A stretch of DNA of 64,000 bases from an uncultured Candidatus Saccharibacteria bacterium. GTDB lineage: Bacteria; Patescibacteriota; Minisyncoccia; Phycocordibacterales; PALSA-1337. Where the stretch lies: the NCBI GenBank assembly GCA_964532285.1, contig CAZHHB010000004.1, positions 425 to 64,424 on the forward strand, in the 5' to 3' direction. Shown here in pieces: positions 3,796-64,000 of the stretch. The notes below the pieces were generated by a model, which did no database searches, was not told the DNA's origin, and worked only from the letters and a program-made list of their open reading frames with translations. The position numbers and the translations under genes were made by a program. Within the stretch, counting starts at the first letter, position 1. Every line of letters starts with the position of its first letter.

Positions 3796-5238
3796 TTATT
3801 TAATTTTTTTATTTTTCTTCTTACCCATCCCTCGGATGGGCAATGTTACATAAAAGGTGGTACCGAAGTTTTCTCGTGGTGATTTGAACCAGATTTTTCC
3901 TCCAGAGTTCTCCACGATTGATTTTACAATGTAGAGACCGAGACCTGTCCCATCGGTATCCATTCCTCTCACATTGTCCGCACGAAACAGCTTTGTGAAT
4001 ATTTTATCCTGCTGATTTCTGGGAATACCATATCCAGTGTCAGAGATTTTGATTTGAATTTTATCCTTCTCTGATAATGAAAGCATAAATTTTATTGCAC
4101 CATCTTTGGGAGTGTATTTTACCGAGTTTGATAGGATATTCTGCATAACCATTCGTAGAAGTTTCGGATCTGCTTGTATGTATGAAATTTTTTTCTCACA
4201 TGAAAATGAGAATCTTATTTTTTTCGTATTAATTTCTGGTTTCTGCTCATTTATTACACTTAACGCTAGTTTACGAATATCAGTTGTTTTGGGCTCAATC
4301 ACAAATGTTCCTAGTTCAAGACGAGAGACATCCAGAAGAGCATTCACAAGCTCAACCATTCTTTGGTTGCTACGGTATACCTCATCCAAATATTTTTTTT
4401 GTTTTCTATTTAGTTTTCCAACATCTCCAGCCAGAAGCATCTCTGTATACCAATTGACGGTAGAGAGTGGGGTACGAAGTTGATGTGATGCGAGTGAGAC
4501 AAATTCGGTCTTCGCCTTATCGACTGCTCGCTCGTTCGTGATATCTCGGAAAACCTTGATTGTCCCCATGACCTTTTTGTTGAGGATGACCGGCGTCACA
4601 GTGATTGCTACGGGTATCTTTATGCCATCTCTTCGCACATTGAAGTAAGTGGTTCCTGTCGTGGTAATGCCGTCTTTCAAGGCCATGTTTACTGGATGTT
4701 TCTCTGACAGAATGGGCGCACCCCTTTTGTCTTCCAAAAGAGCTATTTCGGAAAAATGTTTCCCCAAAACTTCATCATTTTTATTATCAAGTATTTTTTG
4801 AGCAGTTTTATTTATTAGGATGATGTTTCCTCTTTCATCGGTTGCCATGAGACCATCACCTATGGAAAGTAAAATCGCTCCTTCTTTTGCACTGACAATT
4901 TCTAGGCTTTTTGTGCGTTCAAGGACTTTTCTTTCCAATGTCTCGTGAGATTTCTTGAGTTTTTCTGCCGTCACCACCAGTTTTCGTCGAACACCCTCTC
5001 TCTCTCGGGCAGTTACAGCGAGTTTCTCCGCTGTTGTTGCTAATTTTGCCGCAGTCACAGCAAGTTTGCGCCTGACGCTTTCTTTTTCTCTAGCAGTTAT
5101 GGCGAGTTTCTCCGCTGTTGCTGCCAGCTTTGCCGCGGTCACAGCCAGCTTGCGTCGGACATCTTCTTTTTCTCTAGCCAAAATCCTCAGATTGAGGATA
5201 ATGTCATCGGATGTGGAAATAGTAGTTTTTTTATTCAT
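3796..5238 (-). CDS. Sensor histidine kinase: coiled-coil repeat N-terminus, PAS, HisKA, HATPase_c
   Basis: The H-box 'SHQLRTPL', N-box 'NILSNSVKYT' and G-boxes 'DTGYGIP' / 'GTGLGLYIV' are present. A PAS-like segment ('ILLSIGDGLMATDERGNIILINKTAQ') precedes the HisKA domain. The N-terminus is made of tandem 26-aa repeats. Confidence 0.8.
   Translation of the reverse strand: MNKKTTISTSDDIILNLRILAREKEDVRRKLAVTAAKLAATAEKLAITAREKESVRRKLAVTAAKLATTAEKLAVTAREREGVRRKLVVTAEKLKKSHETLERKVLERTKSLEIVSAKEGAILLSIGDGLMATDERGNIILINKTAQKILDNKNDEVLGKHFSEIALLEDKRGAPILSEKHPVNMALKDGITTTGTTYFNVRRDGIKIPVAITVTPVILNKKVMGTIKVFRDITNERAVDKAKTEFVSLASHQLRTPLSTVNWYTEMLLAGDVGKLNRKQKKYLDEVYRSNQRMVELVNALLDVSRLELGTFVIEPKTTDIRKLALSVINEQKPEINTKKIRFSFSCEKKISYIQADPKLLRMVMQNILSNSVKYTPKDGAIKFMLSLSEKDKIQIKISDTGYGIPRNQQDKIFTKLFRADNVRGMDTDGTGLGLYIVKSIVENSGGKIWFKSPRENFGTTFYVTLPIRGMGKKKNKKIK
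4960..5175 (-). repeat. Tandem ~78-bp coding repeats (about 3 units) at the histidine-kinase N-terminus
   Basis: The amino-acid unit 'RKLAVTAAKLA(A/T)TAEKLA(I/V)TAREKE(D/S/G)VR' repeats. The corresponding DNA repeats are visible at 4980-5200. Confidence 0.7.
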
Positions 5239-5630: not shown

Positions 5631-5803
5631 AATGTCTTTTTCGCTTTACGGCCAATAAATGGGTGAATCATCTTGTAGACATCACTATTTTTGTTAAGAA
5701 AACCCGTAATCAAGAGCCGTTCCAGGTCGCGAATCATTACAGTCTCTTGTGAAAGATGAAAAATGGGGAATATGGACCGTGGTATTACCACCAAGTCTGA
5801 TTC

Positions 5804-5855
5804 TTGACTTACTGGTGTTTCGAGAGTAGTTTTTGGTCAGGTTTGGGAATGGTTC
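5804..5855 (+). promoter_or_regulatory. Sigma70-like promoter (TTGACT-17-TAGTTT) plus 29-nt leader; copy 1 of a duplicated promoter/leader
   Basis: TTGACT at 5804-5809, a 17-nt spacer, then TAGTTT at 5827-5832. The stretch 5827-5855 'TAGTTTTTGGTCAGGTTTGGGAATGGTTC' is identical to 9083-9111. Confidence 0.5.
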
Positions 5856-5886
5856 CCAATGTAGCACAAAGAAAGAAAAACAAAAT

Positions 5887-7245
5887 ATGCAAACAAACGA
5901 AACGCAGTCGGCTGGCATACAGCCAATGAGCGAAGGGAAGACCAAACAAATCTTTCCCATCCCTGGCAGTCCTGCCAGAGTCGTAGTCAAATCGAAAGAT
6001 GACATCACTGCTGGTGACGGTGCCAAACACGACATTATCGAAGGTAAAGCCGCCCTGTCCACGCGGACAACCTGCAATGTGTTCCGACTCCTCCGGGCAT
6101 GCGGTATCCCTGTCGCCTTCGAGGATCAGGATGGCCCCACGGAATTCATCGCCGACAAGTGCACCATGTTGTCGTACGAGGTCGTGATCCGGCGCGAAGC
6201 CCACGGCTCATATCTAGATCGGAACCCTCATCTGCCGAAGGGACATGTCTTCCCGAATTTGGTCCTGGAGTTTTTCCTCAAGACTCATGGCAAGATCTGG
6301 ATCAATCCGGTGACCGGACGAAGTTATGAACTGCAGAAGGATGACCCGCTGATGGTGTCTGACCATCAAAAAGGTTGGATTGAGTTGTATTACCCGGGGC
6401 ATACTTCCGAAGAAAGGAAGATTGCTTCGAAGGGGCAACTCGTCGGGCAAAAACCCTTCCTCGTCCTGTCTGAAGAGGAAATTTTCTTCCGTGGAGATGA
6501 GGGGTCGCTCATGGCGCGCATGGGAAACATCGCTCGCCAAGCTTTCCTGGTTCTGGAGAAAGCGTGGCAGATCCAGGGGCGCAGGCTCGTGGACTTCAAG
6601 GTTGAGTTTGGTATCAACACTGAAGGACTGCTTCTGCTCGCCGATGTCATTGACAATGACTCCTGGCGGTTGATTGAACCTTCCGGCGGGTACATGGACA
6701 AACAGGTGTATCGCGACGGCGGGGATCTGAATACGGTCACGGCGAAGTATCGCGAAGTCGCGGATTTGACTGATCGGTTCGAAATTCCTCCCCAGCGTCT
6801 CATCATCTGGTGTGGGTCTGACAAGGATCACTTCACGGCAGTCGAAGATCTTTGGTTGAAGCTTGAACCGAAGCCACAGTTCCAATCCCTGCCGATCACC
6901 TGCTCGGTGCACAAACAGCCGGCCTTGGCGTACAAAATCCTGCAGCATCATCTGCAGGAGGGGCCGTACGATTCGGTTATTATCGCCTATATCGGTCGAA
7001 GCAATGGCGCTGGTCCGGTCCTGGCGGCGAATTGCACAGTTCCGGTCATCACCGTGCCGGCGGGATACAAGGAATTCCCCGAAGATGTTTGGTCGTCACT
7101 CCGCACTCCGAGCAATGTGCCGGTCATGACGGTGCTCGAGCCGGCAAATGCCGTACTTGCGGCTCTGCAGATCCTGGCGATGCGCAATCCGAGCATCTAT
7201 GCCGCCCTGCGTTTCGAACAGGAAAAGCGGTTGGTGAATGTTTAA
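5887..7245 (+). CDS. purC/purE: Bifunctional SAICAR synthetase (PurC) / AIR carboxylase (PurE-like) fusion
   Basis: The N-terminal ~300 aa carry the PurC motif 'TAGDGAKHDIIEGKAALSTRTTCNVFRLLRACGIPVAF'. The C-terminal ~150 aa ('VIIAYIGRSNGAGPVLAANCTVPVITVP') resemble PurE, the AIR-carboxylase fold. The reading frame opens at TTG 5833; the first ATG is at 5887 and an alternative ATG is at 5926. The region is GC-rich relative to its flanks. Confidence 0.75.
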   Translation: MQTNETQSAGIQPMSEGKTKQIFPIPGSPARVVVKSKDDITAGDGAKHDIIEGKAALSTRTTCNVFRLLRACGIPVAFEDQDGPTEFIADKCTMLSYEVVIRREAHGSYLDRNPHLPKGHVFPNLVLEFFLKTHGKIWINPVTGRSYELQKDDPLMVSDHQKGWIELYYPGHTSEERKIASKGQLVGQKPFLVLSEEEIFFRGDEGSLMARMGNIARQAFLVLEKAWQIQGRRLVDFKVEFGINTEGLLLLADVIDNDSWRLIEPSGGYMDKQVYRDGGDLNTVTAKYREVADLTDRFEIPPQRLIIWCGSDKDHFTAVEDLWLKLEPKPQFQSLPITCSVHKQPALAYKILQHHLQEGPYDSVIIAYIGRSNGAGPVLAANCTVPVITVPAGYKEFPEDVWSSLRTPSNVPVMTVLEPANAVLAALQILAMRNPSIYAALRFEQEKRLVNV

Positions 7246-7266
7246 TTACAGCGTTCCAAAGACAAG

Positions 7267-7295
7267 CTCCGAGGGTAACCTCCCGGAGTTTTTTT
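7267..7295 (+). terminator. Rho-independent terminator after purC/E
   Basis: CTCCGAGGGTAACCTCCCGGAG hairpin followed by TTTTTTT. Confidence 0.6.
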
Positions 7296-7410
7296 ATTAT
7301 CTTTTTTATTGCCTTTTTGGTGTTTTTGAGTAGTATTGATTTTAGAAAGCATCCGTCCACGAATTGTGGCGGAAAAATTAATAAAAACAAAGCAATAGAA
7401 AGGGGCACAT

Positions 7411-8994
7411 ATGCTTAACCTATCATTGCCGGGTAACCCCCGGTACCAACCGAAAGACCTACAGAAATATTTCGGCTACGACAACCTCTTCAGGTGTGTG
7501 GTCGAAGTGGAGATTGCAACCATGAGGACGCTGGCGGAGATCGGAGTCATTCCTCCTGAGGATATCGCTCTCCTCACGCCGGAACTTGAACAGAAACTCC
7601 TGGCGATCACGACGACCGAAGTCGACAGGGTCGAGAATACCGACACTGAAGAATTCGGCAAGAAGACCAAGCATGACATCCGCGCCTGGGTTGTGATAGC
7701 AAAGTCTCGGGTGCCAGAAGGTCTTCGCCGCTGGATTCACATTCCGCTTACAAGCTATGACGTCCTTGATACGGCTCGGTCGCTTCAGTTCTCTCGTGCT
7801 CACACAGAGGTGGTTAAACCCTTGGCTGATAAAGTCATCAAGCATTTCATTGAGCGGACTAGGACTTTCGCTTCGGTCAAGCAGATCGGTCGTACGCATG
7901 GTCAGCATGCGCTTCCAATCACAGTCGGATTCTGGTTCGCCACGATCTTGAGTCGGATTCTCCGGAATATTGAAAGTGCTAATATGGCAGCTTGTGGATT
8001 GGTAGGCAAGATCTCCGGTGCTGTCGGCGCGTACAATGCGCAGAAGGCGGTTGGGATCACATCAACATGTGCTCTGAACAGACTTGAAGCTATTCAAGCC
8101 TTCATGAGTAATCATGGGGTCACCAGTACAAACGATATTCCAGCGGGGATGATGAGTCGGATCATGTCAGAGCATCCAACTTTTGAAGAATTGGTATTGA
8201 AAAAGCTCGGCCTTAAACCGGCGCCGATCAGTACCCAGATCCTGCCACCCGAACCGCTCGCCGATTATCTGTTCGCATGTGTGAAGTTGTCGGCCTCCCT
8301 CGGCCAATTCGGTCGGGACGGTCGTAACCTCATGCGGAGCGAGATCGCTGAGCTCTGTGAACCGTTCGACAAGGGTCAAGTCGGTTCATCAACCATGGCG
8401 CACAAGAGGAACCCGATTAATTTCGAGAACCTTGAAAGCACATGGCTCAAGAACAAGAATGAGTTCGGCAAGGTCCTGGATGTATTCCTAAGTGATCATC
8501 AACGGGACCTGGTGAACAGTGCCGTTGCTCGGGATTTCCCGACAATCGTTGTAAATCTGGTTTCGCAACTGAACACTCTCTTGCGCGGCGACCCGCCATT
8601 CATCGCTCGGATCTCTGTTGACCAGGAAGCCTGCAAACGCAATCTGGAGCTTCAAGGTGTGGAGATTCTCGCAGAGCCAGTGCAAATAGCCCTTCAGATG
8701 GCAGGCTATACGGGAGATGCTCACAAGGTTGTAAACGAGCAGGCGCTTCCGCTCGTCAAACAAGGCAATTCCTGGTTGGGTGCGATCAAAAAGATTGCTG
8801 AAGATCAGAACGACCAAGGATTGTTGGAGGCCAGATCGAAATTACCGGATGATGTCATGTCGCTGATCGAAGATGTTGGCGGCCATTCCGAAAATTACAC
8901 TGGTCTGGCGGCCGAAAAAGCTCTGGAGATTGCCAAGGCTGCGGAAAACTATCTGAACGCTCCGGCTGTCATGGCTGCGTTTCTCGGTGTCTGA
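7411..8994 (+). CDS. purB: Adenylosuccinate lyase (PurB), fumarate-lyase superfamily
   Basis: Contains the fumarate-lyase signature 'GSSTMAHKRNPINFENL' (GSSxMxxKxN). Overall length and similarity fit ASL. GC-rich. Confidence 0.85.
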   Translation: MLNLSLPGNPRYQPKDLQKYFGYDNLFRCVVEVEIATMRTLAEIGVIPPEDIALLTPELEQKLLAITTTEVDRVENTDTEEFGKKTKHDIRAWVVIAKSRVPEGLRRWIHIPLTSYDVLDTARSLQFSRAHTEVVKPLADKVIKHFIERTRTFASVKQIGRTHGQHALPITVGFWFATILSRILRNIESANMAACGLVGKISGAVGAYNAQKAVGITSTCALNRLEAIQAFMSNHGVTSTNDIPAGMMSRIMSEHPTFEELVLKKLGLKPAPISTQILPPEPLADYLFACVKLSASLGQFGRDGRNLMRSEIAELCEPFDKGQVGSSTMAHKRNPINFENLESTWLKNKNEFGKVLDVFLSDHQRDLVNSAVARDFPTIVVNLVSQLNTLLRGDPPFIARISVDQEACKRNLELQGVEILAEPVQIALQMAGYTGDAHKVVNEQALPLVKQGNSWLGAIKKIAEDQNDQGLLEARSKLPDDVMSLIEDVGGHSENYTGLAAEKALEIAKAAENYLNAPAVMAAFLGV

Positions 8995-9016
8995 TACCTA
9001 TCTGGTACGAATTCAA

Positions 9017-9052
9017 CAGGCCCATTCTGTGAAAACGGAGTGGGTCTTTTTT
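9017..9052 (+). terminator. Rho-independent terminator after purB
   Basis: GGCCCATTCTG...CGGAGTGGGTC stem (with one G.U pair) followed by TTTTTT. Confidence 0.5.
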
Positions 9053-9059
9053 ATTACTC

Positions 9060-9111
9060 TTGACAGATATATACTTGGATGTTAGTTTTTGGTCAGGTTT
9101 GGGAATGGTTC
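9060..9111 (+). promoter_or_regulatory. Sigma70-like promoter (TTGACA-17-TAGTTT) plus 29-nt leader; copy 2 of the duplicated promoter/leader
   Basis: TTGACA at 9060-9065, a 17-nt spacer, then TAGTTT at 9083-9088. The stretch 9083-9111 is identical to 5827-5855. Confidence 0.5.
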
Positions 9112-9135
9112 TCAAAATAAAAAGAGAGGTGTCAT

Positions 9136-9684
9136 TTGAAAAAAATATTAAGTTTTATGAGTGTGGTAATGAGTATCTTCGGATACTCTTGTTTGATAGT
9201 GATGACCGCCAAGGGGACAGGTGAAGGGCTCTCCATTTCCACCTTCGGCCTCTGGTCTGCATTGGCGTGGATAACGAGCTTCACGATGTTGAGTCAAAAA
9301 GCCAATCCCGCAGTTCCCATTATCTACGGTGTTGGTGCAACTACGACGACGATCATACTACTCTTCAAAGGGAGGTATGGTTGGTCTGCTCTGGATACTG
9401 TCATAGCAATACTCGTCGTCTTGTGTGTGATACTTTGGCTTACCAGCGGTCCTCGATTGGCTCTTATTCTCTCTGTTGTGGCGGCAGCCATCGCTACTAT
9501 TCCATTCGTCGTTCTGACATGGAAGTCCCCAGAGATGAGCCCCATCATTCCAAATTCAGCATTTCTCGTGGCGAATTACCTAGCCTTTGTTTCGGCCAAG
9601 GCGTGGACTATCGAGGACAGACTGTATTCAGGGGTGAATGTGGTGGTTTGTTCGCTATTGATCATTCCGTGGTTGTTTCGTTAA
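9136..9684 (+). CDS. Hypothetical polytopic membrane protein (TTG start)
   Basis: 182-aa ORF with about 6 TM segments. A strong SD 'AAAGAGAGG' sits 6 nt upstream of TTG 9136. Family not recognised. Confidence 0.5.
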   Translation: MKKILSFMSVVMSIFGYSCLIVMTAKGTGEGLSISTFGLWSALAWITSFTMLSQKANPAVPIIYGVGATTTTIILLFKGRYGWSALDTVIAILVVLCVILWLTSGPRLALILSVVAAAIATIPFVVLTWKSPEMSPIIPNSAFLVANYLAFVSAKAWTIEDRLYSGVNVVVCSLLIIPWLFR

Positions 9685-9834
9685 TCTCGCGTGCGATCAC
9701 GATGATTTCTCAAATAGGCTCAGACGCAAGTTTGGGTCTTTTTTTATGTGTTAAATTATTAATAGATTTGTAAGATTTCATCCCTTAGATTCTGGTATTT
9801 TTTGGTAAATTTTCTCTAAAATAGCCTTATTTAT

Positions 9835-9888: not shown

Positions 9889-10857
9889 GTGAAAATACAT
9901 TTACCAAATAGCGCATTTCTGGGTAATATTAACTCATTTCTTAGAAGTTTCGATTCATCTTCCCCAGATGAACTAATAGTTACTTCTAATAATAAATGGG
10001 TATCAGTTCATCCCGTCGTCATTGCAATGGTCGCCGCTCTAGGTAAGGGTATATCTGCCCAAAAGCTTAGATTCGAAGCTTTTGAAGCAAAGTCCAAGCA
10101 TTATTTTGAGAGAATAGGTCTATTTCGTTTTTTGGGTAAAGACTCAGGCATTTCAATAACAAAACATGATTCCTCTGGTCGTTTTATCCCTATAACAAAG
10201 ATTAAAAATTCTAACGAACAGAGTAAGTTCATTACGGAAATGATTCCTCTTTTACATCTCGCGGACAACCCTAGACAAGCAGAACCCATTCAGTATATTG
10301 TTGGTGAGTTGGTGAGAAATGTTATTGAACATTCTCAATCTAAGGACGGTGCTATAGTTTGTGCTCAATATTACAAAAAAAGTAACACTATCAGGATTGG
10401 AATTGTTGACGGGGGTGTTGGTATTAAAAAAACAATAACCCGTTCCCATCAAGCCGTAGATGACTTTGAAGCCATTAAACTTGCTCTAATGCCAGGTATA
10501 ACAGGCACAACAAGAAAGGAGGGTGGTACTGCTGAAAATGTTGGAGCTGGATTGTTTTTTATCAAATCCATTGCTCATGTGAACCGCGATTTTTTCTTAA
10601 TATATAGCGGTCAGGCAATGTTTAAATTACTTAAAAGACCCCTTGAAGGATCAGTGTTTTTACAGGCTGACCCTCTTCAAGACAGACATTCTAAAGAAAA
10701 AATGCTTCCATATTGGAATGGAACTGTTGTGGGGATAGATATATCTCTAGATAATACAAAAGAATTCTCTGTCATCTTGGATTTGATTCGTAATACATAT
10801 GCGACATCAGTTAGAGAGAGGAGAAAAGAAAAGTATAGAAAACCTAAATTTATATGA
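9889..10857 (+). CDS. GHKL/Bergerat-fold ATPase, histidine-kinase-like ATP-binding protein with ~130-aa N-terminal extension
   Basis: N-box 'ELVRNVIEH', G1 'VDGGVGI' and G2 'GTAENVGAGLF' are present, and the ATP-binding core resembles anti-sigma-factor kinases (RsbW/SpoIIAB). GTG start. The stop overlaps the next gene as ATGA. Confidence 0.6.
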   Translation: MKIHLPNSAFLGNINSFLRSFDSSSPDELIVTSNNKWVSVHPVVIAMVAALGKGISAQKLRFEAFEAKSKHYFERIGLFRFLGKDSGISITKHDSSGRFIPITKIKNSNEQSKFITEMIPLLHLADNPRQAEPIQYIVGELVRNVIEHSQSKDGAIVCAQYYKKSNTIRIGIVDGGVGIKKTITRSHQAVDDFEAIKLALMPGITGTTRKEGGTAENVGAGLFFIKSIAHVNRDFFLIYSGQAMFKLLKRPLEGSVFLQADPLQDRHSKEKMLPYWNGTVVGIDISLDNTKEFSVILDLIRNTYATSVRERRKEKYRKPKFI

Positions 10858-11144
10858 CAACAATAAAATTACAACCAATAGTTGGATCTTTTGCTGAGAA
10901 TAAAGATAAGGCAAAAGAGATTCGTATAAAGAAAATTAATCCTATATTAAAAAAAGGAGAGAGTATAAAACTAGATTTTGAAGGTGTTACCTTGGCAACT
11001 CAATCTTTTATACACGCTCTAATCAGCCAGTTGATTAGACATTATGGAACCGAAGTCCTAGATAGGATTCAATTTAAGAATTGTAATAACACACTGAAGA
11101 AAATTATTGAAATTGTTACTGACTATATGCAATTTAGAGAATAG
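10854..11144 (+). CDS. Small STAS-like (DUF4325-type) protein, translationally coupled partner of the GHKL ATPase
   Basis: 96 aa, 'ESIKLDFEGVTLATQSFIHALISQLIRHYGTEVLDRIQFKNCNNTLKKII', fits a STAS / anti-sigma-antagonist-like alpha/beta fold. It shares a 4-nt ATGA overlap with the upstream gene. Confidence 0.5.
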   Translation: MTTIKLQPIVGSFAENKDKAKEIRIKKINPILKKGESIKLDFEGVTLATQSFIHALISQLIRHYGTEVLDRIQFKNCNNTLKKIIEIVTDYMQFRE

Positions 11145-16848: not shown

Positions 16849-16884
16849 ACTACGGCTCATAGTTCCTCCTCGGATTAGGGGAAA

Positions 16885-17577
16885 ATGAAAATGGGCAAAT
16901 TAGCCCAAGGAGATAAGATTATGAACACAGAATTCATGATTGCAGAAGTAACGCCAGGGAAACTGAATGCGCTGGTAAAAAATATCATGCGTCAAACAGG
17001 CGAAACTGATCCCAATGAAGCTGTACGTCTCGTTAATTCGGGTGAGTGGGTAGTTTCGAAACCGACTCGCAACTGGCGCGAACAAGACGGCGTCATCTAC
17101 TTCTCGGTCACCAGCGATGGCACGACCGGCGAGGACTGGATCACCCGGCTCGAAAGCAAAGGCTTCCGCGTGGGTGACTACGCCAAGCAGGTGCTTCGTT
17201 CGCCGGACTTCAAGCCGACCAGTGGCATGACGACCGAAGTCGCCGTTCTCAAGGGCATGCTCTTCGAGGACAACGATCGGATCACGAAGAAGATTCGCGC
17301 CGAGGCAGACAAGCGCAAGCTGTCCAAGCCGAACGCCGAACTGGCCTGCCTCATCCGTGAGAAGTTCACGGACAAGGAGATTGAAGCGATGGGTCTGTGG
17401 TACATCGTTGCTATGCACGAGCCCATCAACGACTCCGATGGCGATCCGCGCCTCCTCCTCGCTTCCCGCGCTGACGATGGTCGGTGGCTGGATGCGTACT
17501 GCGGCAACCCTGGCCGCAGGTGGAGTCGTGGGCGCGGTTTTGCCTTCGTCGTCCCGCAAGTCAGTTCTCAACACTAA
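16885..17577 (+). CDS. DGR target protein (variable C-terminus, degenerate C-type-lectin/FGE-like ending 'GFAFVVPQ'); GC-rich
   Basis: The last ~45 codons form the VR. An SD 'AGGGGAA' precedes the ATG at 16885 (alternative ATG at 16921). No signal peptide is visible. The body of the gene is much more GC-rich than neighbouring genes. Confidence 0.7.
   Translation: MKMGKLAQGDKIMNTEFMIAEVTPGKLNALVKNIMRQTGETDPNEAVRLVNSGEWVVSKPTRNWREQDGVIYFSVTSDGTTGEDWITRLESKGFRVGDYAKQVLRSPDFKPTSGMTTEVAVLKGMLFEDNDRITKKIRAEADKRKLSKPNAELACLIREKFTDKEIEAMGLWYIVAMHEPINDSDGDPRLLLASRADDGRWLDAYCGNPGRRWSRGRGFAFVVPQVSSQH
17434..17560 (+). repeat. DGR variable repeat (VR)
   Basis: Aligns base-for-base with 17994-18120. All 18 mismatches are at positions where the TR has A. 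The resulting codon changes include AAC(N)->CGC/CTC/TCC/GAT/AGT and TAC(Y)->TGC. Confidence 0.9.
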
Positions 17578-17616
17578 GATCCTCGGGACTTTAGTCCCTT
17601 TGACCTTTGCACTTTG

Positions 17617-17645
17617 GCCCGGCATCACGCAAGTGATGTCCGGGC
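17617..17645 (+). promoter_or_regulatory. GC-rich hairpin about 55 nt downstream of the VR (candidate DGR target-recognition hairpin/cruciform)
   Basis: GCCCGGCATCAC-GCAA-GTGATGTCCGGGC, an 11-12-bp stem with one bulged T. Confidence 0.4.
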
Positions 17646-17993
17646 TAAATTTATGCTAGAATTTTATATGGTAGTAGGCGAATCATGCGGGCGGTTATGA
17701 CTTCCCGCGGCCGAATCCAGTATCCATGAGCTGAGAGCGAGAGCGGTCAGCCCAGTAGGCGAATCAGCAGATTCGCTCTTGGAGTAAATTCTACTGAATC
17801 AGGCTTCTCTCGGAGGGCTCATGTAGACACTTCATCCTTTGACAAGCTCGAGACGATCCTGAGCAAATCGAAGGATCAAAAAATGAAGCTACTTGGTGCA
17901 AGGTGCTATGGCATTATAATAATGCCAAATTCGATTCAACTCTGAGATCGCGTAAGCTTCAAAGGGTGGTGGCATGGAAGGCCTTATGCACAT

Positions 17994-18120
17994 TCCGATG
18001 GCGATCCGAACCTCCTCAACGCTAACCGCGATGACGATGGTCGGTGGCTGAATGCGTACTACGACAACCCTGACAACAGGTGGAATCGTGAGAACGGTTT
18101 TGCCTTCGTCGTCCCGCAAA
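17994..18120 (+). repeat. DGR template repeat (TR), invariant donor copy
   Basis: A non-coding remnant of the target C-terminus with no in-frame start. It carries adenines, including several AAC codons, at every site that differs in the VR. Confidence 0.9.
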
Positions 18121-18125
18121 TCTCT

Positions 18126-18512
18126 TCATTTCTTCCCCGCTTTTGTGGGGAAGTTTTGTTTATCTCGAGCTGTGTCCAAAGTTTTTGTAAGCTGGCCATT
18201 CCAACCTCCTAGATCTCTCCCAACCCCATCTAACTTTATAGAAAGTGCGATATACTTCTTGTCATCCAGTGATTTTGTTTCCCACAGGATCATTAGTAAT
18301 ATTTTCAGTGCATCTAGTTTCTTTATGGACAGGCGCACATACGGATGTTTCTCTTGTGGTGACAAGAAACCCGCTGCCGCGACAGATTCTATGATTTCTA
18401 CGAATAAAGTATCGATTCTGTATCCGAAAGAGTTCCTATTAAATTTCGGTAAATCTTTGTAAAAACCATGCCATAACAAATAAGTATCTTTGACCTTATT
18501 CAAAACAGGCAA
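18126..18512 (-). CDS. avd: Avd-like DGR accessory protein (four-helix-bundle / '23S rRNA intervening-sequence protein' family)
   Basis: 128 aa, basic and helical: 'KVKDTYLLWHGFYKDLPKFNRNSFGYRIDTLFVEIIESVAAAGF'. Size and family match Bordetella-phage bAvd. It is divergently oriented to the RT. Confidence 0.6.
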   Translation of the reverse strand: MPVLNKVKDTYLLWHGFYKDLPKFNRNSFGYRIDTLFVEIIESVAAAGFLSPQEKHPYVRLSIKKLDALKILLMILWETKSLDDKKYIALSIKLDGVGRDLGGWNGQLTKTLDTARDKQNFPTKAGKK

Positions 18513-18521
18513 AATTCGGTT

Positions 18522-18531
18522 GGGGGGGGGG
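18522..18531 (+). repeat. Homopolymeric G10 tract in the avd/RT divergent promoter region
   Basis: GGGGGGGGGG lies between the avd start (18512, minus strand) and the RT start (18542). Confidence 0.9.
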
Positions 18532-18541
18532 TCTTCATAGT

Positions 18542-19573
18542 TTGCGACGGATTCAGTTCAATCATACATACAATGATATCATTTCATTAGAAAATCTTCT
18601 TGAAGCATGGAAGGAATTCGTGAGAGGTAAGCGGAGTAAAAAGGATGTTCAGGAATTTGAACATGATCTGATGAGTAATATCATCTCACTTCATCGTGAT
18701 CTTGCGGCGAAAACCTATGAACATTCCGCATATGAATTCTTCAGAATTTCAGATCCCAAACCGCGCGATATTCATAAAGCGAAGGTAAGAGATAGGTTAT
18801 TACATCACGCCATTCATAGGAAATTGTACCCATTCTTCAATAAAACATTTATTGCGGATTCTTTCTCATGCCGACTTAAAAAGGGAACACATAGAGCCAT
18901 AGATAGATTTCGTACTTTTTCTTACAAGGTCTCAGAAAATCATACCAAGACAGTATGGGTACTCAAATGTGACATTAGAAAATTCTTTGCTTCAGTCGAT
19001 CAAGCCATACTTCTCGGTATTTTAAATAATTACATAAAAGACAAAGACATTCTCATGTTACTTTCGAAAGTCGTGGGCAGTTTTTATTCAACAGAGAAGG
19101 GTGTTGGTTTACCACTTGGTAATCTCACCTCTCAATTATTCGTGAATATTTACATGAATGAATTTGACCAGTTTATGAAACATAAAATAAAGGCAAGATA
19201 TTACATAAGATATGCGGATGATTTTGTTGTTTTTTCACAAGATAAGCCATGGCTTCACGGTATTATTTCGGAGATTACAGGTTTTCTTCTTAATAGACTG
19301 AAACTTCATCTCCATCCGAACAAGATATCTATAAGTACTATTGCTTCGGGTATTGATTATTTGGGTTGGGTCAATTTTCCAGATCACAGAGTCTTGAGGA
19401 CGAAGACCAAGAAGAGAATGTTTAGAAACATAAAAGCGAAAGGCGGAAAAGAAGAAACAGTTCAGTCGTATCTGGGTCTCATCAGCCATGGCAATAGCTG
19501 GAAGTTGCGACAGGAAATTATAAAATCACAGCCATTGACTTCAGTCGTATTTGGGTATATTATCCACATGTAA
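18542..19573 (+). CDS. DGR-type reverse transcriptase
   Basis: Motif 4 'LPLGNLTSQLFVNIY' is the DGR hallmark [I/L]GxxxSQ, essentially the Bordetella bRT 'IGNLTSQ'. Motif 5 is 'YIRYADDFVVF'. Also present is 'PKPRDIHKAKVRDRLLHHAIH'. TTG start at 18542, with an in-frame stop immediately upstream. Confidence 0.85.
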   Translation: MRRIQFNHTYNDIISLENLLEAWKEFVRGKRSKKDVQEFEHDLMSNIISLHRDLAAKTYEHSAYEFFRISDPKPRDIHKAKVRDRLLHHAIHRKLYPFFNKTFIADSFSCRLKKGTHRAIDRFRTFSYKVSENHTKTVWVLKCDIRKFFASVDQAILLGILNNYIKDKDILMLLSKVVGSFYSTEKGVGLPLGNLTSQLFVNIYMNEFDQFMKHKIKARYYIRYADDFVVFSQDKPWLHGIISEITGFLLNRLKLHLHPNKISISTIASGIDYLGWVNFPDHRVLRTKTKKRMFRNIKAKGGKEETVQSYLGLISHGNSWKLRQEIIKSQPLTSVVFGYIIHM

Positions 19574-25403: not shown

Positions 25404-25837
25404 GTGATTTTGTATTATCTTGGCTTTTATATACGGCGATTATATCACGACACTGTTCAATGTGAACTTTTTTATAATCCACATGCTCTATTGACAGGGT
25501 ATCCATACAGGAGTAGTCTTTCGGACAGAGGATCACTTAGATCCAATTGCATTGGCTTCGTTTGGGGATACCAGGAATACTGGGAATACCGAATGTCGCT
25601 TAGCAAAACAAGAGAGCCGGCGTCGTAAGACACAAGCCCTAGGGCTGAAAACTACAAATAATCACTCGTCACCACATTGGAGATATGACATTAAAAGTGA
25701 CTTGTTATGAACCTGGTTTGCCGGTTTGATTTCCTTCCTAGTTATCGTCCCTGTAGGTTAGTGGCTTGGGTTTCAAAATCCCAACGCGGCTACGAAGCAG
25801 TGCGAGAAGCGGGTTGGTAAAGTGAGTAAGTGAGTCA

Positions 25838-25876
25838 GGGCCGTCGCAGCGTTTTCGCGCGACGGCCCTCTTTTTA
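25838..25876 (+). terminator. Strong rho-independent terminator in a 530-bp non-coding region, with no upstream plus-strand gene
   Basis: GGGCCGTCGCGC...GCGCGACGGCCC stem followed by TCTTTTT. Confidence 0.55.
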
Positions 25877-33312: not shown

Positions 33313-36300
33313 TTGGACATGACTATTCAAAAGATGGAAGACGAAAATAAGAAAAAAGAAATACAGAAAAGTCAGAGTGCTCTCCGCGAAGAGCGTATTT
33401 TGGCATATTGGAATGAGAAAGATATTTTCAAGAAAACCTTAGAGAAACCTGCGCCTAAGGGAACTTACACATTCTATGATGGACCGCCTTTCGCTACGGG
33501 GACTCCGCATTATGGTCATATTCTAGCCAGTACGATCAAGGACGCTGTACCAAGGTTTTGGACTATGAGGGGTTACAAGATTCCACGCCGTTGGGGTTGG
33601 GATTGCCACGGTTTACCTGTAGAAAATCTCATAGAAAAAGAATTAAATTTGAAGACAAAGAAAGACATAATCAGTTATGGTATAGGAAAGTTCAATGACG
33701 GAGCACGTTCTGCTGTTATGCGTTATGCAGATGAATGGCGCAAGATTATCCCACGCCTCGGTCGTTTCGTAGATATGGATGACGATTATCGCACTATGGA
33801 TGCGAGCTATACCGAAACTGTTTGGTGGACATTCAAACGCCTATACGACAAAGGGTTGATTTATGAGGGGTTCAAGTCTATGAGTCTATGTCCGCGATGT
33901 GAGACTACATTGTCAAACTTTGAGGTTGCTCAGGGTTACAAAGATATAACTGATATTTCGGTTTATGTGAAGTTTAAAATTAAATCTCAAAAATTAAATC
34001 TCAAAAATGAGGCACAGGATTCATTGGGGAATGTTTATTTGATCGCCTGGACGACCACCCCATGGACCTTGCCGGGTAATGTGGCTTTGGCTGTAAATCC
34101 AGATATTGAATATTGCAAAGTGAAGATTACAGAGTCCGCAAGGGGAGACGGTGTTTCATCTGCGGGAGATTTGTTAATCGTCGCCAAGTCTAGATTGGTG
34201 GCTTTGAAAGATATCAAGTACGAGATTGTGGAGACTTTCAAAGGTTCCGACCTTGTGGGCGAATCTTACGAGTCATTATTTGATTATTACTCCAAAGACT
34301 CTGAGTTGAAGAATAGGGAAAATGGTTGGAGGGTGTACGGTGCAGATTTTGTTACGACCGAAGATGGAACTGGTGTGGTGCACATCGCTCCAGCTTTTGG
34401 TGCTGACGATTATGAAATGCTCACGAAACACGATTTGCCTTTTGTTCAACATGTGACGACAGGCGGCCATTTCAAAAAGGAAGTTACTGATTTTGCCGGT
34501 ATAGCGGTAAAGCCTAAGGCTGTTGAGGGAGAAAAGGATGCAAACCAAAAGGCCGATATCGAGATCATCAAATGGCTTGCTCATCGTGGTGGTCTGTTCG
34601 CAAAGGAGAAAATAGTTCATTCATATCCGCACTGTTGGCGCTGTGACACCCCACTTTTGAATTACGCCGCTTCCTCATGGTTTGTAAAAGTGACAGACCT
34701 GAAAGACAAACTGGTAGCTGAAAATAAAAAAGTGAAATGGACGCCGCCTGAGATTGGTGAAGGAAGATTTGGTAATTGGCTGTCGGGTGCGCGCGATTGG
34801 GCAATATCGCGTTCTAGATTCTGGGGAGCACCTATACCTGTCTGGAAAGAAGAGAAGACTGGAGTTTGCCATGTTCTCGGCTCAGTAGGGGATTTGAAAA
34901 AATTCAGTAAAGCCAAGAATACATATTATGTCATGCGTCATGGACAAGCAGACAATAATGTTAAAGGTATTTTGAGTAATGATATTGCTGATCCGTATCA
35001 TCTGACAGATGAAGGTCGGAAACAAGTGGCGGAGACGGCTGATAGATTGAAAGGGGTCAAGTTCGATGAAATATTCGTCTCACCTTTTGTCAGAACTAGA
35101 GAGACAGCTAATATTGTGAAAGAGAAACTTGGCTGGAAAGATGAAGATATGCATGTTGATGAGAGGATTCGTGAACTCGGATCAGGAGTTTTTGCTGGCA
35201 AGAGTGTGGAGGAATTTTCACAAGTTTTCCCATTCAGAGAGAGATTTACAAAATGTCCAGAAGGAGGTGAGACCTATGCCGATATCAAGAAGCGCATGGG
35301 AGATTTCCTCTACGATATGGAGAGTAAGTATTCGGGGAAGACCATCATGATAGTCAGTCATGAGACCTCGTCATACCTGCTTGTTGCGGCGGCTATGGGA
35401 CTGAATAGGGAACAAACACTTGATCTGCGTGGTGACTGTGATTTCATGGCCAATGCTGAATGTAGGAAGATAGAATTCTCACCCCTACCACACAACGCCG
35501 AATATGAATTAGATCTACATCGTCCTTATATTGATGATGTTGATTTGAGGACTCATCATGGAGACAAGTTGATGCGAGTTCAGGATGTCTTTGATTGTTG
35601 GTATGAATCAGGGTCCATGCCTTATGGTGAAGCTCATTATCCATTTGAGAATACTGAACAATTTGAACCGGCTTCTGGTCTATTTAAAAAATCTGTAGGT
35701 TTCCCAGCCGACTTCATTGCTGAAGGAGTAGATCAGACACGCGGGTGGTTCTATTCAATGATGGTTTTGGGTGTTGCTCTATTCGGCAAATCTCCATACA
35801 AGAGAGTTGTCGTCAACGGATTGGTCTTGGCTGAAGATGGTCAGAAGATGTCGAAATCAAAGAATAATTTCCCAGATCCGATCTTGATCTTTGATAAATA
35901 CGGCGTTGATGCACTCAGATATTATCTACTTTCATCACCACTTCTGAAGGCAGAAGATCTGAATTTCTCTGAGAAGGATGTAGATCTAATAAATAAAAAG
36001 ATCGTTATGCGCTTAGACAATGTCGTATCATTTTATAAATTATATGAGACTTCTCAAAAATCCGAGCCAAAGTCTCAGGTTTCTACAAATGTTCTGGATA
36101 TTTGGATCACAACAAGGTTGGATGAACTTGCAAGCGAAATAACCAAAGCGATGGAAAAATATGAGCTTGATAAGGCGACAAGGCCTATCGCTGATTTTGT
36201 GGATGATCTATCTACCTGGTACTTACGTCGTTCACGAGACAGGTTCAAAGGAGATGATTTGTCGGACAAGGAAAGTGCTTTGAATACCACCAGATATGTC

Positions 36301-36870
36301 CTGTTGGAAACAGCCAAGCTGATCGCTCCATTCATGCCTTTCTTGGCAGAAGATATATATAAGCAAGTGGGAGGGGCGAAGGAAAGTGTGCATTTGGAAG
36401 ATTGGCCAACGACGGAGAAAGTTGATGCCAATATTCTTGATGAAATGAGAGCTGTTCGAGCCATTGCTTCATCTGGTTTGGAGGCGCGCACCGTCGCCAA
36501 GATCAATATTCGTCAACCTCTAGCAACCATGGAGGTCAAGAGTAATAGGAAATTGGGAGAACAACTTGTAGAGCTTTTGAAAGATGAGGTCAATGTAAAG
36601 AGGGTGGTATTCGGTGCGGATATTGATAAAGAAGCGACCTTGGATATGAATATTACTCCGGAACTCAAAGAAGAAGGTCAGGTGCGTGAATTGTTACGCA
36701 CCATTCAAGATCTTCGCAAGGAGAAGGGGCTTAAGGTGGGGGATAAAGCGACACTTACTGTTACAGATGATATGAAAGATTTAGTTTCGCGCCATGAAAA
36801 AGAAATAATGAAGGCGACGGGATTGGAGCAGATAGAATATGGCGACAAAATGGAGATCGCGACGCCGTGA
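33313..36870 (+). CDS. ileS: Isoleucyl-tRNA synthetase (type 2) with an inserted histidine-phosphatase (PGAM-like) domain
   Basis: 'PHYGHILAS', 'WDCHGLPVE', 'WAISRSRFWGAPIP' and 'KMSKSKNN' are all present. Between 'PIPVWKEE' and 'DVFDCWYESGS' there are about 250 aa, versus about 60 in typical IleRS. The extra segment carries 'VMRHGQADN', 'VSPFVRTRETA' and 'IVSHETS'. Confidence 0.85.
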   Translation: MDMTIQKMEDENKKKEIQKSQSALREERILAYWNEKDIFKKTLEKPAPKGTYTFYDGPPFATGTPHYGHILASTIKDAVPRFWTMRGYKIPRRWGWDCHGLPVENLIEKELNLKTKKDIISYGIGKFNDGARSAVMRYADEWRKIIPRLGRFVDMDDDYRTMDASYTETVWWTFKRLYDKGLIYEGFKSMSLCPRCETTLSNFEVAQGYKDITDISVYVKFKIKSQKLNLKNEAQDSLGNVYLIAWTTTPWTLPGNVALAVNPDIEYCKVKITESARGDGVSSAGDLLIVAKSRLVALKDIKYEIVETFKGSDLVGESYESLFDYYSKDSELKNRENGWRVYGADFVTTEDGTGVVHIAPAFGADDYEMLTKHDLPFVQHVTTGGHFKKEVTDFAGIAVKPKAVEGEKDANQKADIEIIKWLAHRGGLFAKEKIVHSYPHCWRCDTPLLNYAASSWFVKVTDLKDKLVAENKKVKWTPPEIGEGRFGNWLSGARDWAISRSRFWGAPIPVWKEEKTGVCHVLGSVGDLKKFSKAKNTYYVMRHGQADNNVKGILSNDIADPYHLTDEGRKQVAETADRLKGVKFDEIFVSPFVRTRETANIVKEKLGWKDEDMHVDERIRELGSGVFAGKSVEEFSQVFPFRERFTKCPEGGETYADIKKRMGDFLYDMESKYSGKTIMIVSHETSSYLLVAAAMGLNREQTLDLRGDCDFMANAECRKIEFSPLPHNAEYELDLHRPYIDDVDLRTHHGDKLMRVQDVFDCWYESGSMPYGEAHYPFENTEQFEPASGLFKKSVGFPADFIAEGVDQTRGWFYSMMVLGVALFGKSPYKRVVVNGLVLAEDGQKMSKSKNNFPDPILIFDKYGVDALRYYLLSSPLLKAEDLNFSEKDVDLINKKIVMRLDNVVSFYKLYETSQKSEPKSQVSTNVLDIWITTRLDELASEITKAMEKYELDKATRPIADFVDDLSTWYLRRSRDRFKGDDLSDKESALNTTRYVLLETAKLIAPFMPFLAEDIYKQVGGAKESVHLEDWPTTEKVDANILDEMRAVRAIASSGLEARTVAKINIRQPLATMEVKSNRKLGEQLVELLKDEVNVKRVVFGADIDKEATLDMNITPELKEEGQVRELLRTIQDLRKEKGLKVGDKATLTVTDDMKDLVSRHEKEIMKATGLEQIEYGDKMEIATP

Positions 36871-62672: not shown

Positions 62673-62979
62673 TATCTTACAGAATGATAATCATGTTAAA
62701 CCACTCAAAGACGCGGCCATAGCCACACTCCTTATGGGGCGTAGCTTGTAGCCGCTGAATAAAGCGGTTTTTCATTTCCAGGAGGAAAGCAGTTTGAAAA
62801 TTTCATACCAAAAGAAAGTAAAGAGTTCGTTTTTATTGAGTAAATAAAAATTGAACGGCTTATTCATTTTTCGGGTCGAAAGATGGGTAGGTGTGGATGT
62901 AGGTTTATAGCCCTACGACGCTCTGCTTTGCAGAGCTAAGAAGGGCAAGAACACACAGCGGTGTGTGGATTTCCTAGTA

Positions 62980-64000
<1,021 letters not shown>

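Follow-up and report, generated by a model that had tools for sequence, protein, structure and literature searches.

Why does the same short piece of regulatory DNA stand at both ends of a purine-synthesis cassette, and from which end was it copied? The question arises in a 64-kb stretch of DNA (the window; positions 425 to 64,424 of contig CAZHHB010000004.1, assembly GCA_964532285.1) from an uncultured member of the Candidate Phyla Radiation (CPR, or Patescibacteria), a group usually described as dependent on others for nucleotides. A 29-nucleotide (nt) sequence, TAGTTTTTGGTCAGGTTTGGGAATGGTTC, occurs there in two exact copies, one ahead of the gene purCE and the other beyond purB, ahead of a gene for a membrane protein (Table 1). 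No third copy is found in the window even with 3 mismatches permitted, and the number expected from shuffled sequence is 0.00. Taken as a whole, we consider it fairly probable that the segment between the copies is a truncated, horizontally exchanged cassette, and that the leader native to purCE was copied to the membrane gene.

According to this account, the cassette would be a truncated late-purine module in which purCE and purB form separate transcription units, both equipped with a promoter and a terminator of their own. A patch of about 29 nt from the purCE promoter-leader would later have been copied, with its register preserved, to the promoter of the neighbouring membrane gene. That gene would have retained its -35 box and spacer as well as its ribosome-binding site and start codon, but not the leader of about 110 nt that is typical of its family. 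Since the -10 box, start site and 5' stem-loop would now be common to purCE and the membrane gene, the two would probably be expressed and controlled together.

The shared promoter-leader and the probable direction of copying

The original prediction, made from the bare sequence, described identical 29-nt sequences at both ends of the island and read them as a -10 box plus the start of a leader; the first description holds and the second looks right. TTGAC[T/A] lies 17 nt upstream of each copy, and the architecture TTGACT-N17-TAGTNT is kept upstream of purCE in relatives. Extended without gaps, the repeat reaches 58 nt at 78% identity (5802-5859 against 9058-9115); beyond the 29-mer, the left and right copies have in common just TCTTGAC and CAA. 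The promoter pattern occurs 4 times in the window against 0.42 expected, and a generic sigma-70 scan misses the purCE promoter because its -10 box agrees with TATAAT in just 3 of the 6 positions. Two independent Logan assemblies agree with the window at zero mismatches, one of them covering the whole locus with both copies of the 29-mer and the other stopping inside purB and so holding the first copy alone. Thus, the repeat arrangement is real and not an assembly artefact.

Table 1. Features of the purine cassette and the adjoining membrane-protein gene (window coordinates)
Feature	Position	Strand	Basis or remark
GC-rich purine cassette	5802-9052	+	Extent of nucleotide homology to Paceibacterota relatives
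purCE promoter, TTGACT-N17-TAGTTT, cassette-native	5804-5832	+	Architecture and homologous spacer in relatives; predicted start
29-mer copy 1	5827-5855	+	Exact repeat: -10 hexamer, initial transcribed region and most of leader stem-loop
Leader stem-loop UUGGGAA-UGG-UUCCCAA	5843-5859	+	Minimum free energy and centroid folds; predicted a few nt from purCE mRNA 5' end
purCE, 452 residues: PAICS-like SAICAR synthetase (N-terminal) and class II AIR carboxylase (C-terminal)	5887-7245	+	Pfam, PDB alignments
purCE intrinsic terminator, CTCCGAGGGTAACCTCCCGGAG then T-run	7267-7296	+	Read from sequence; scan called stem on opposite strand only
Candidate purB promoter, TTGCCT-N16-TAGTAT	7309-7336	+	Predicted from sequence; CPR purCE promoters repeatedly show GAGTAGTAT-type -10 boxes
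purB, adenylosuccinate/SAICAR lyase, 527 residues	7411-8994	+	Pfam Lyase_1 and ASL_C
purB terminator, right end of cassette homology	9018-9053	+	13-bp stem and T-run
Hybrid promoter: own TTGACA -35 and 17-nt spacer joined to copied TAGTTT -10	9060-9088	+	Comparisons of spacer and -35 context
29-mer copy 2, derived copy	9083-9111	+	Exact repeat
Weaker stem-loop, UUUGGGAA-UGG-UUCUCAAA, one G·U pair	9098-9116	+	Read from sequence
Membrane protein, 182 residues, TTG start, seven-transmembrane SWEET/PQ-loop fold, no Pfam family	9136-9684	+	
Terminator of membrane gene	9716-9745	+	Terminator scan

In relatives (referred to below by locus number), the region upstream of purCE runs in a constant order: TTGACT-N17-TAGTNT, a variable 6-8 nt, AGGTTTGGGAAT-nnn-TTCCCAATG, then an A-rich Shine-Dalgarno region with ATGCAAAC, the form in which the window's ATG at 5887 is kept. 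A promoter of this type with a homologous spacer precedes purCE in L002/L010, L005, L011, L012, L013, L047 and L102, and the promoter-leader as a whole is retained at L002/L010, L005, L011, L012, L013 and L102 and reduced at L047, L014 and L054. Promoter and leader accompany purCE in at least 8 CPR genomes, and the left spacer of the window is 67% identical to that of L005 in a hand comparison. In none of these relatives (L002/L010, L005, L011, L012, L013, L102, L047, L014, L054) does the membrane gene lie downstream of purCE, and when JGI metagenomes were scanned for the motif of promoter plus leader, there were 4 true matches, all at purCE, together with 3 chance matches. The left copy is thus native to the cassette: its -35 box, spacer and leader run without a break into the stretch of cassette homology and are conserved at the purCE genes of relatives.

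The right copy has a different setting. Compared by hand with the purCE promoters of L005, L013 and L010, its spacer is 22-39% identical, which is the level of chance, and its -35 context, CTTGACAGA, is common to the window and the native promoter of a membrane-gene homologue (L096). The membrane gene also retains the ribosome-binding and start context of its family, AGGTGTC..TTGAAAAAA. Homologues of this gene are solitary and stand in unrelated neighbourhoods, once within a ribosomal-protein operon; their leaders, of about 110 nt, are of a different kind, and the 29-mer leader is found at none of the loci read. The right copy would therefore be the derived one, since the leaders of homologues differ and the motif is found at purCE only.

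The two window copies are identical even where relatives vary freely, namely in the 6-8 nt after the -10 box and in the loop, which argues for copying and not convergence; the right copy would then be recent. Among the purCE-purB-purH-purM relatives compared, the promoter-leader repeat is present in the window alone. We infer that copying ran from left to right, the reverse of the original prediction, in which the cassette had entered the leader of the membrane gene and duplicated that gene's promoter. A string resembling GATGTAGTTT in the native membrane-gene promoter of L006, a single example, suggests that microhomology took part in copying the patch of about 29 nt.

The cassette, its enzymes and its relatives

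The limits of the cassette are set by nucleotide homology. In blastn comparisons with L005, L010, L011, L013 and L087, alignments begin at 5802 or 5803 and end at 9052, with 74-84% identity; the left edge is the purCE -35 box and the right edge the T-run of the purB terminator, which is homologous to the purB terminator of L002. The segment also stands out in composition, as the original prediction had noted: GC content is 0.51-0.54 in the 6-9 kb interval against a window mean of 0.43. At third codon positions (GC3), too, purCE (GC 0.54, GC3 0.64) and purB (GC 0.52, GC3 0.58) depart from the 53 open reading frames (ORFs) of the window (GC 0.43±0.04, GC3 0.42±0.07), among which they are outliers together with the ORF at 16900-17628 alone.

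A diversity-generating retroelement at 16870-19573 supplies this third outlier, its variable region, and accounts for a second GC peak at 17-18 kb. Its reverse transcriptase lies at 18542-19573, and a 134-nt template repeat (17994-18127) is 85% identical to the variable repeat (17434-17567), which lies at the C-terminal end of a + strand ORF; all mismatches replace a template A by another base. The contig in ENA terminates just past the reverse transcriptase.

The closest relatives carry a four-gene cluster, purCE-purB-purH(-)-purM. In the metagenome-assembled genomes (MAGs) of Paceibacterota concerned (for example, CAIMKX01, CAVYBN01 and JBAZRX01), the stretch corresponding to 5802-9052 is 74-84% identical and has the same promoter, leader, terminators and raised GC. 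The window differs in that homology ends at the purB terminator, and the membrane gene and a low-GC gene pair replace purH and purM. That pair (9889-11144; GC 0.36 and 0.30) encodes a HATPase_c-like protein of 322 residues and a DUF4325 (STAS-like) protein, both weakly similar to the N-terminal part of DrmA, a defence protein, in PADLOC, and occupies the position of purH and purM in relatives. Further downstream, the window shares a block of genes (polysaccharide deacetylase, DsbA, VKOR, methyltransferase, FolD, SIMPL) with L005 and in part with L002, so a pur cluster at this place is not peculiar to this genome.

That purCE and purB are the only pur genes of the window, as first proposed, agrees with Pfam scans of the other ORFs and with tblastn searches using the PurH and PurM of relatives; likewise, none of the best 120 PurH matches is assigned to the 176-kb source contig. 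The module linking 5-aminoimidazole ribonucleotide (AIR) to aminoimidazole carboxamide ribonucleotide (AICAR) is thus isolated within the window, as the original prediction stated, and is best seen as a truncated form of the relatives' cluster, in which purM and purH extend the pathway upstream to formylglycinamidine ribonucleotide and downstream to inosine monophosphate (IMP). The window also encodes FolD, DHFR, ThyA, SHMT and dCMP deaminase. No integrase, recombinase or transposase is present in the island, which holds purCE and purB only, or among its annotated neighbours (two-component genes, HicAB, the membrane gene and the HATPase/DUF4325 pair). A search of IMG/VR for a possible phage vector found no relative of PurCE, and 2 short-motif matches there are probably chance; our literature searches returned no description of this cassette.

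The assignment of the PurE-like, PurC and PurB steps in the original prediction agrees with Pfam and PDB alignments. PurCE matches SAICAR_synt (2.8e-39; PF01259, residues 14-133 plus a second stretch) and AIRC (3.8e-19; PF00731, residues 339-446), and its best PDB matches, 4ja0 from Bombyx mori (E 8e-64) and human 2h31 (E 2e-56), are both animal PAICS enzymes with the same order of domains, PurC N-terminal and PurE C-terminal, aligned over their full length. The PurE loop IGRSNGAGPVLAAN aligns to AGRSNGLGPVLSGN of PAICS and SVHK aligns to SAHK. The loop of class II PurE reads G-R-S-N-G-x-G-P and that of class I G-G-A-A-H-L-P-G; a GRSNGxGPV-type loop with an S-x-H-K motif in the 40s loop, which we take to be diagnostic of class II, is found in the PurE domain here. 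On both the domain and the loop evidence, the protein fits the PAICS type of bifunctional PurC-PurE (class II). The window protein differs from animal PAICS in being bacterial (CPR) and in carrying an insertion of about 45 residues, which splits the PurC match in two: query positions 133-218 face about 40 residues in PAICS.

Fused PurCE is treated as typical of eukaryotes in a review (PMC3261824). A PAICS-type fusion with class II PurE, usually described as eukaryotic, is found here within a large prokaryotic family, whose members in the databases exceed 5000 at E ≤ 1e-10. Compared with the window protein, identity is 71-80% in MAGs of Paceibacterota/Parcubacteria, 64% in one Saccharibacteria MAG, 54-60% in Alphaproteobacteria, Verrucomicrobiota, Planctomycetota and Myxococcota (50% in one divergent alphaproteobacterial MAG) and 40-55% in other CPR lineages; the best match among the GTDB representatives searched is 80% identical. 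In an arbitrarily rooted neighbour-joining tree, the window protein falls inside a CPR clade that is sister to a non-CPR group, and other CPR lineages are basal.

PurB contains Lyase_1 (PF00206) and ASL_C (PF08328), and its best PDB match is 1f1o (4e-43). The signature loop of this family, SSxMPxKxN, together with the fumarate-lyase/ASL C-terminal domain, is recognizable, with GSSTMAHKRNP in the window protein against GSSAMPHKRNP in 1f1o. Its best NCBIfam match, TIGR00928 purB, reaches 262.2 bits, far ahead of other families and under the equivalog cutoff of 326.2 bits, a shortfall that fits CPR divergence and an insertion of about 48 residues (208-256). The enzymes of Bacillus and Thermotoga (1f1o, 1c3c) have the same two domains and GSSxMxHKRNP loop; the 527-residue window protein differs from them by this insertion. 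A purB of another type (Lyase_1 with ADSL_C), 24-28% identical to window PurB, stands beside purCE in L102 (9437-10892), where it is called as two ORFs and is therefore frameshifted or a pseudogene.

From these assignments, direct carboxylation of AIR, with no need of PurK, is expected of the class II PurE domain, and formation of succinylaminoimidazole carboxamide ribonucleotide (SAICAR) of the PurC domain; PurB is expected to cleave two substrates, yielding AICAR from SAICAR and adenosine monophosphate (AMP) from adenylosuccinate. The cassette as a whole is thus predicted to convert AIR to AICAR without PurK, with purB serving AMP synthesis too.

Competing histories and the role of the leader

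Is the cassette an exchanged unit? In all close relatives its GC is 0.52-0.57, set in host loci of 0.42-0.53, and its GC3 stays near 0.6 throughout while that of the hosts ranges from about 0.4 to about 0.7; it forms a GC island in the window, L013, L010, L005 and the more distant L052, and not in the GC-richer L102. The last of these is syntenic with the window at 33-53 kb (IleRS with a His_Phos insertion, RecO, TatD, S6, SSB, S18, EF-P, RecA, FtsK), and its purCE, preceded by the promoter and leader described above, is found in the interval from TatD to S6, next to the unrelated type of purB. The TatD|S6 site is empty in the window. In L011 and L013 the pur cluster stands in yet other contexts, so that the cassette occupies at least 3 different loci overall.

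Synonymous sites tell a similar story. At conserved residues, codon identity of purCE and purB with relatives exceeds that after shuffling codons within amino acids (z 3.4-10.6), and synonymous divergence (dS, NG86) is 0.9-1.7. For the syntenic flanking genes (FolD, methyltransferase, DsbA, VKOR, polysaccharide deacetylase) the corresponding z is -1.1 to 1.2, and dS is not computable for 4 of the 5 and 2.1 for DsbA. Because GC is decoupled from the host, the loci differ and synonymous sites are less saturated than in the flanks, we infer that the cassette was exchanged horizontally among Paceibacterota. A GC-richer lineage such as that of L102 is a plausible compositional home for it.

These comparisons bear on three other histories. 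That a foreign cassette inserted itself into the membrane-gene leader with a 29-bp target or attachment-site duplication, as the original prediction had it, would explain why exact 29-bp direct repeats (58 nt at 78%) bracket a GC-rich segment and why synteny with relatives is absent upstream of the cassette. The compositionally foreign and probably horizontal character of the cassette is borne out by its GC, loci and synonymous sites; the insertion with promoter duplication is not. Homology to the purCE promoters of relatives covers the left -35 box, spacer and leader and is continuous with that of the cassette from 5802, the leader is absent from membrane-gene homologues at the loci read and lies at purCE only in metagenomes, the island and its annotated neighbours are free of integrases and transposases, and relatives have the cassette beside the same downstream block. 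We rejected a target duplication on the ground that the left spacer, and not the right, is homologous to those promoters. An arrangement in which the response-regulator gene abuts the membrane gene at 9136 with a single 29-mer, as the prediction foresaw, was seen at none of the relatives' loci read (the closest homologue, P0122, is not among them), which is weak evidence; all told, we give such an insertion very little chance. A Campbell-type integration, in which a circular purCE-purB molecule recombined with a resident purCE-type leader already fused to the membrane gene, with a crossover inside the 29-mer that left hybrid repeats, is somewhat less remote and still improbable. The 58-nt repeat does begin at the left edge of the cassette (5802) and 6 nt past its right edge (9058), and relatives show a pur cluster to be ancestral at this locus. 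However, such a crossover would place the cassette's -35 box and spacer on the right and the chromosome's on the left, and it is contradicted by the opposite assignment of the spacers (left 67%, right 22-39%); the right -35 context also matches the native membrane-gene promoter of L096.

The more serious challenge comes from simple descent: the pur genes could be ancestral, their GC3 held by selection or biased conversion, their positions changed by ordinary rearrangement and the 29-mer a local patch of gene conversion. PurCE, PurB and PurH all have their closest relatives in CPR, a CPR-type promoter and leader is kept even in distant CPR lineages, PurCE is no closer to L102 than RecA is, and the downstream block is syntenic with L005 and L002. 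Set against this are a cassette GC3 that stays near 0.6 while the host value moves from about 0.4 to about 0.7, position-specific synonymous identity in purB and purCE next to saturated syntenic flanks, and an occurrence at 3 or more unrelated loci with an empty TatD|S6 site in the window. We regard vertical descent as unlikely, and prefer exchange of the cassette followed by copying of its leader. Several observations nevertheless weigh against this preference. Identity of PurCE to L102, at 77%, equals that of RecA in the same pair, and the excess of codon identity of purCE there, with a z of 3.7, passes the range of host genes (z -0.4 to 2.3) by a modest margin only. The downstream block common to L005 and partly to L002 fits an old insertion or a same-site replacement and not a recent insertion, and the arbitrarily rooted PurCE tree carries no support values. 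The copied patch would be only about 29 nt long, and joint regulation of purCE and the membrane gene is probable at most. The stem-loop, moreover, is weak: the leaders fold no better than shuffled sequences (z about 0), and the stem never covaries, its positions being invariant.

What, then, was copied? In the 68-nt purCE leader (-7.3 kcal/mol) the stem-loop is present in both the minimum free energy and the centroid fold. Its GGG...CCC arms, 6-8 nt apart, are kept across the purCE leaders of CPR, and distant CPR leaders (Taylorbacteria, Saccharibacteria, Paceibacteria) have a shorter UGGG(A)-loop-(U)CCCA hairpin; in the MAFFT alignment of the hairpins the 3' arm is out of register in some rows. 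In the 62-nt membrane-gene leader (minimum free energy -5.7 kcal/mol, no more stable than shuffles), the 3' arm pairs instead with the GAGAGG Shine-Dalgarno region. Folding thus lends the hairpin no thermodynamic support, and the case for it is one of conservation. Neither leader matched a known RNA family when 5700-9200 was searched against Rfam, whether the gathering thresholds were applied or E was relaxed to 10; the relaxed search gave just three chance matches, all within coding sequence.

The shared element would most likely act as a 5' stabilizer or a protein-binding hairpin. Stem-loops at the 5' terminus stabilize bacterial mRNAs such as those with the Escherichia coli ompA and Bacillus subtilis aprE and ermC leaders. 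The window leader resembles these in its short predicted hairpin a few nt from the transcript 5' end, conserved together with the promoter, and differs from them in that the hairpin is just 5-7 bp long and known here from sequence. The main alternative is that TTGGGAA-N3-TTCCCAA is the operator of a purine-responsive repressor over the transcription start, in which case the second copy would have added a transporter to its regulon. A perfect 7+7 palindrome directly 3' of the -10 box, kept in the closest relatives, is indeed typical of a repressor site, and the RNA stability is unremarkable. Yet the spacing of the arms, or half-sites, varies from 6 to 8 nt across CPR leaders, which favours an RNA hairpin over a DNA operator of fixed spacing, as does the change of C to U (T in the DNA) in the second copy, which breaks the palindrome and keeps a G·U pair in the RNA. 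No DNA-binding regulator is encoded nearby, and the adjacent response regulators are receiver-only by Pfam. An operator therefore seems doubtful to us, and we favour the hairpin.

The membrane protein, metabolic outlook and further features

The protein that would have come under the purCE leader has the seven-transmembrane, 3+1+3 triple-helix-bundle fold of SWEET/PQ-loop transporters and the KDEL receptor. It differs from them in sequence: identity to its structural matches (cystinosin, 7zk1; OsSWEET2b, 5ctg) is 6-13%, and neither it nor 10 distant relatives match any Pfam family, MtN3_slv (PF03083) and PQ-loop (PF04193) included. No informative fusion was seen in the distant relatives. By profile search the family is prokaryotic, with 519 representatives at 50% identity clustering.

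The native leaders of this family were read at L006 (5700-5845), L097 (430-576), L008 (5905-6054) and L096 (860-1006). Those of L006 and L097 contain a long, apparently homologous hairpin (GGTAGCTTTGAGA...TCTTCAAAGCTATC and GGGTAGCTCTAAG...TTTCAGAGCTATTC, respectively), and TGGACCTTGAA is common to the leaders of L006 and L008. Rfam searches of the leaders of membrane-gene homologues found nothing relevant, and the native leader may be an undescribed cis-regulatory RNA that the window gene has lost. A LOOT RNA (Rfam RF03000, 85.6 bits) lies on the CPR contig L007 (8723-8844), near a membrane-gene homologue set among genes related to nucleotides (NUDIX, PPK2, HAD, CYTH and NDK).

Complete modules for de novo IMP synthesis were found in about 32% of CPR MAGs in one survey (PMC11608272), and purine genes in CPR are thus not surprising in themselves. 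What the locus offers is a view of late purine steps as a compact, self-promoted and compositionally distinct cassette, and a concrete example of how reduced genomes may gain, trim and rewire biosynthetic modules. Both processes, the horizontal exchange of a biosynthetic cassette and rewiring by promoter copying, are of kinds already known, and current understanding is not overturned. The promoter-leader graft also provides a testable lead to the substrate of the SWEET-fold membrane family. One speculation, to which we attach little probability, is that the SWEET-fold protein takes up a purine-pathway intermediate or its riboside, such as AIR or AICA riboside, supplied by a host or partner cell, and that the bacterium runs only the middle steps, AIR to AICAR, on borrowed metabolites. 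Were this so, truncation of the cassette and grafting of the promoter would be two steps of one adaptation to the cross-feeding of intermediates.

Elsewhere in the window, the gene for a PAS histidine kinase (3796-5238, - strand) contains an 84-nt tandem duplication of 81% identity at 5003-5170, in its N-terminal part. An isoleucyl-tRNA synthetase-like ORF (33313-36870) has a His_Phos_1 domain inserted at residues 539-707, as does its counterpart in L102 (194-3970). The 23S rRNA gene begins at 62975, close to the window end at 64000, and no 16S rRNA gene was detected in the preceding 63 kb; rRNA genes appear unlinked in this window. Finally, a candidate structured non-coding RNA of about 345 nt occupies 25491-25872, flanked by thyA (-) and glyA (+). 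A TTGACA-N17-TAGTCT promoter lies at 25491-25519 and a strong terminator at about 25838-25872; the candidate has no notable ORF by eye and no Rfam match at E up to 10, and its minimum free energy of -118 kcal/mol gives a z of -3.1 against shuffles.

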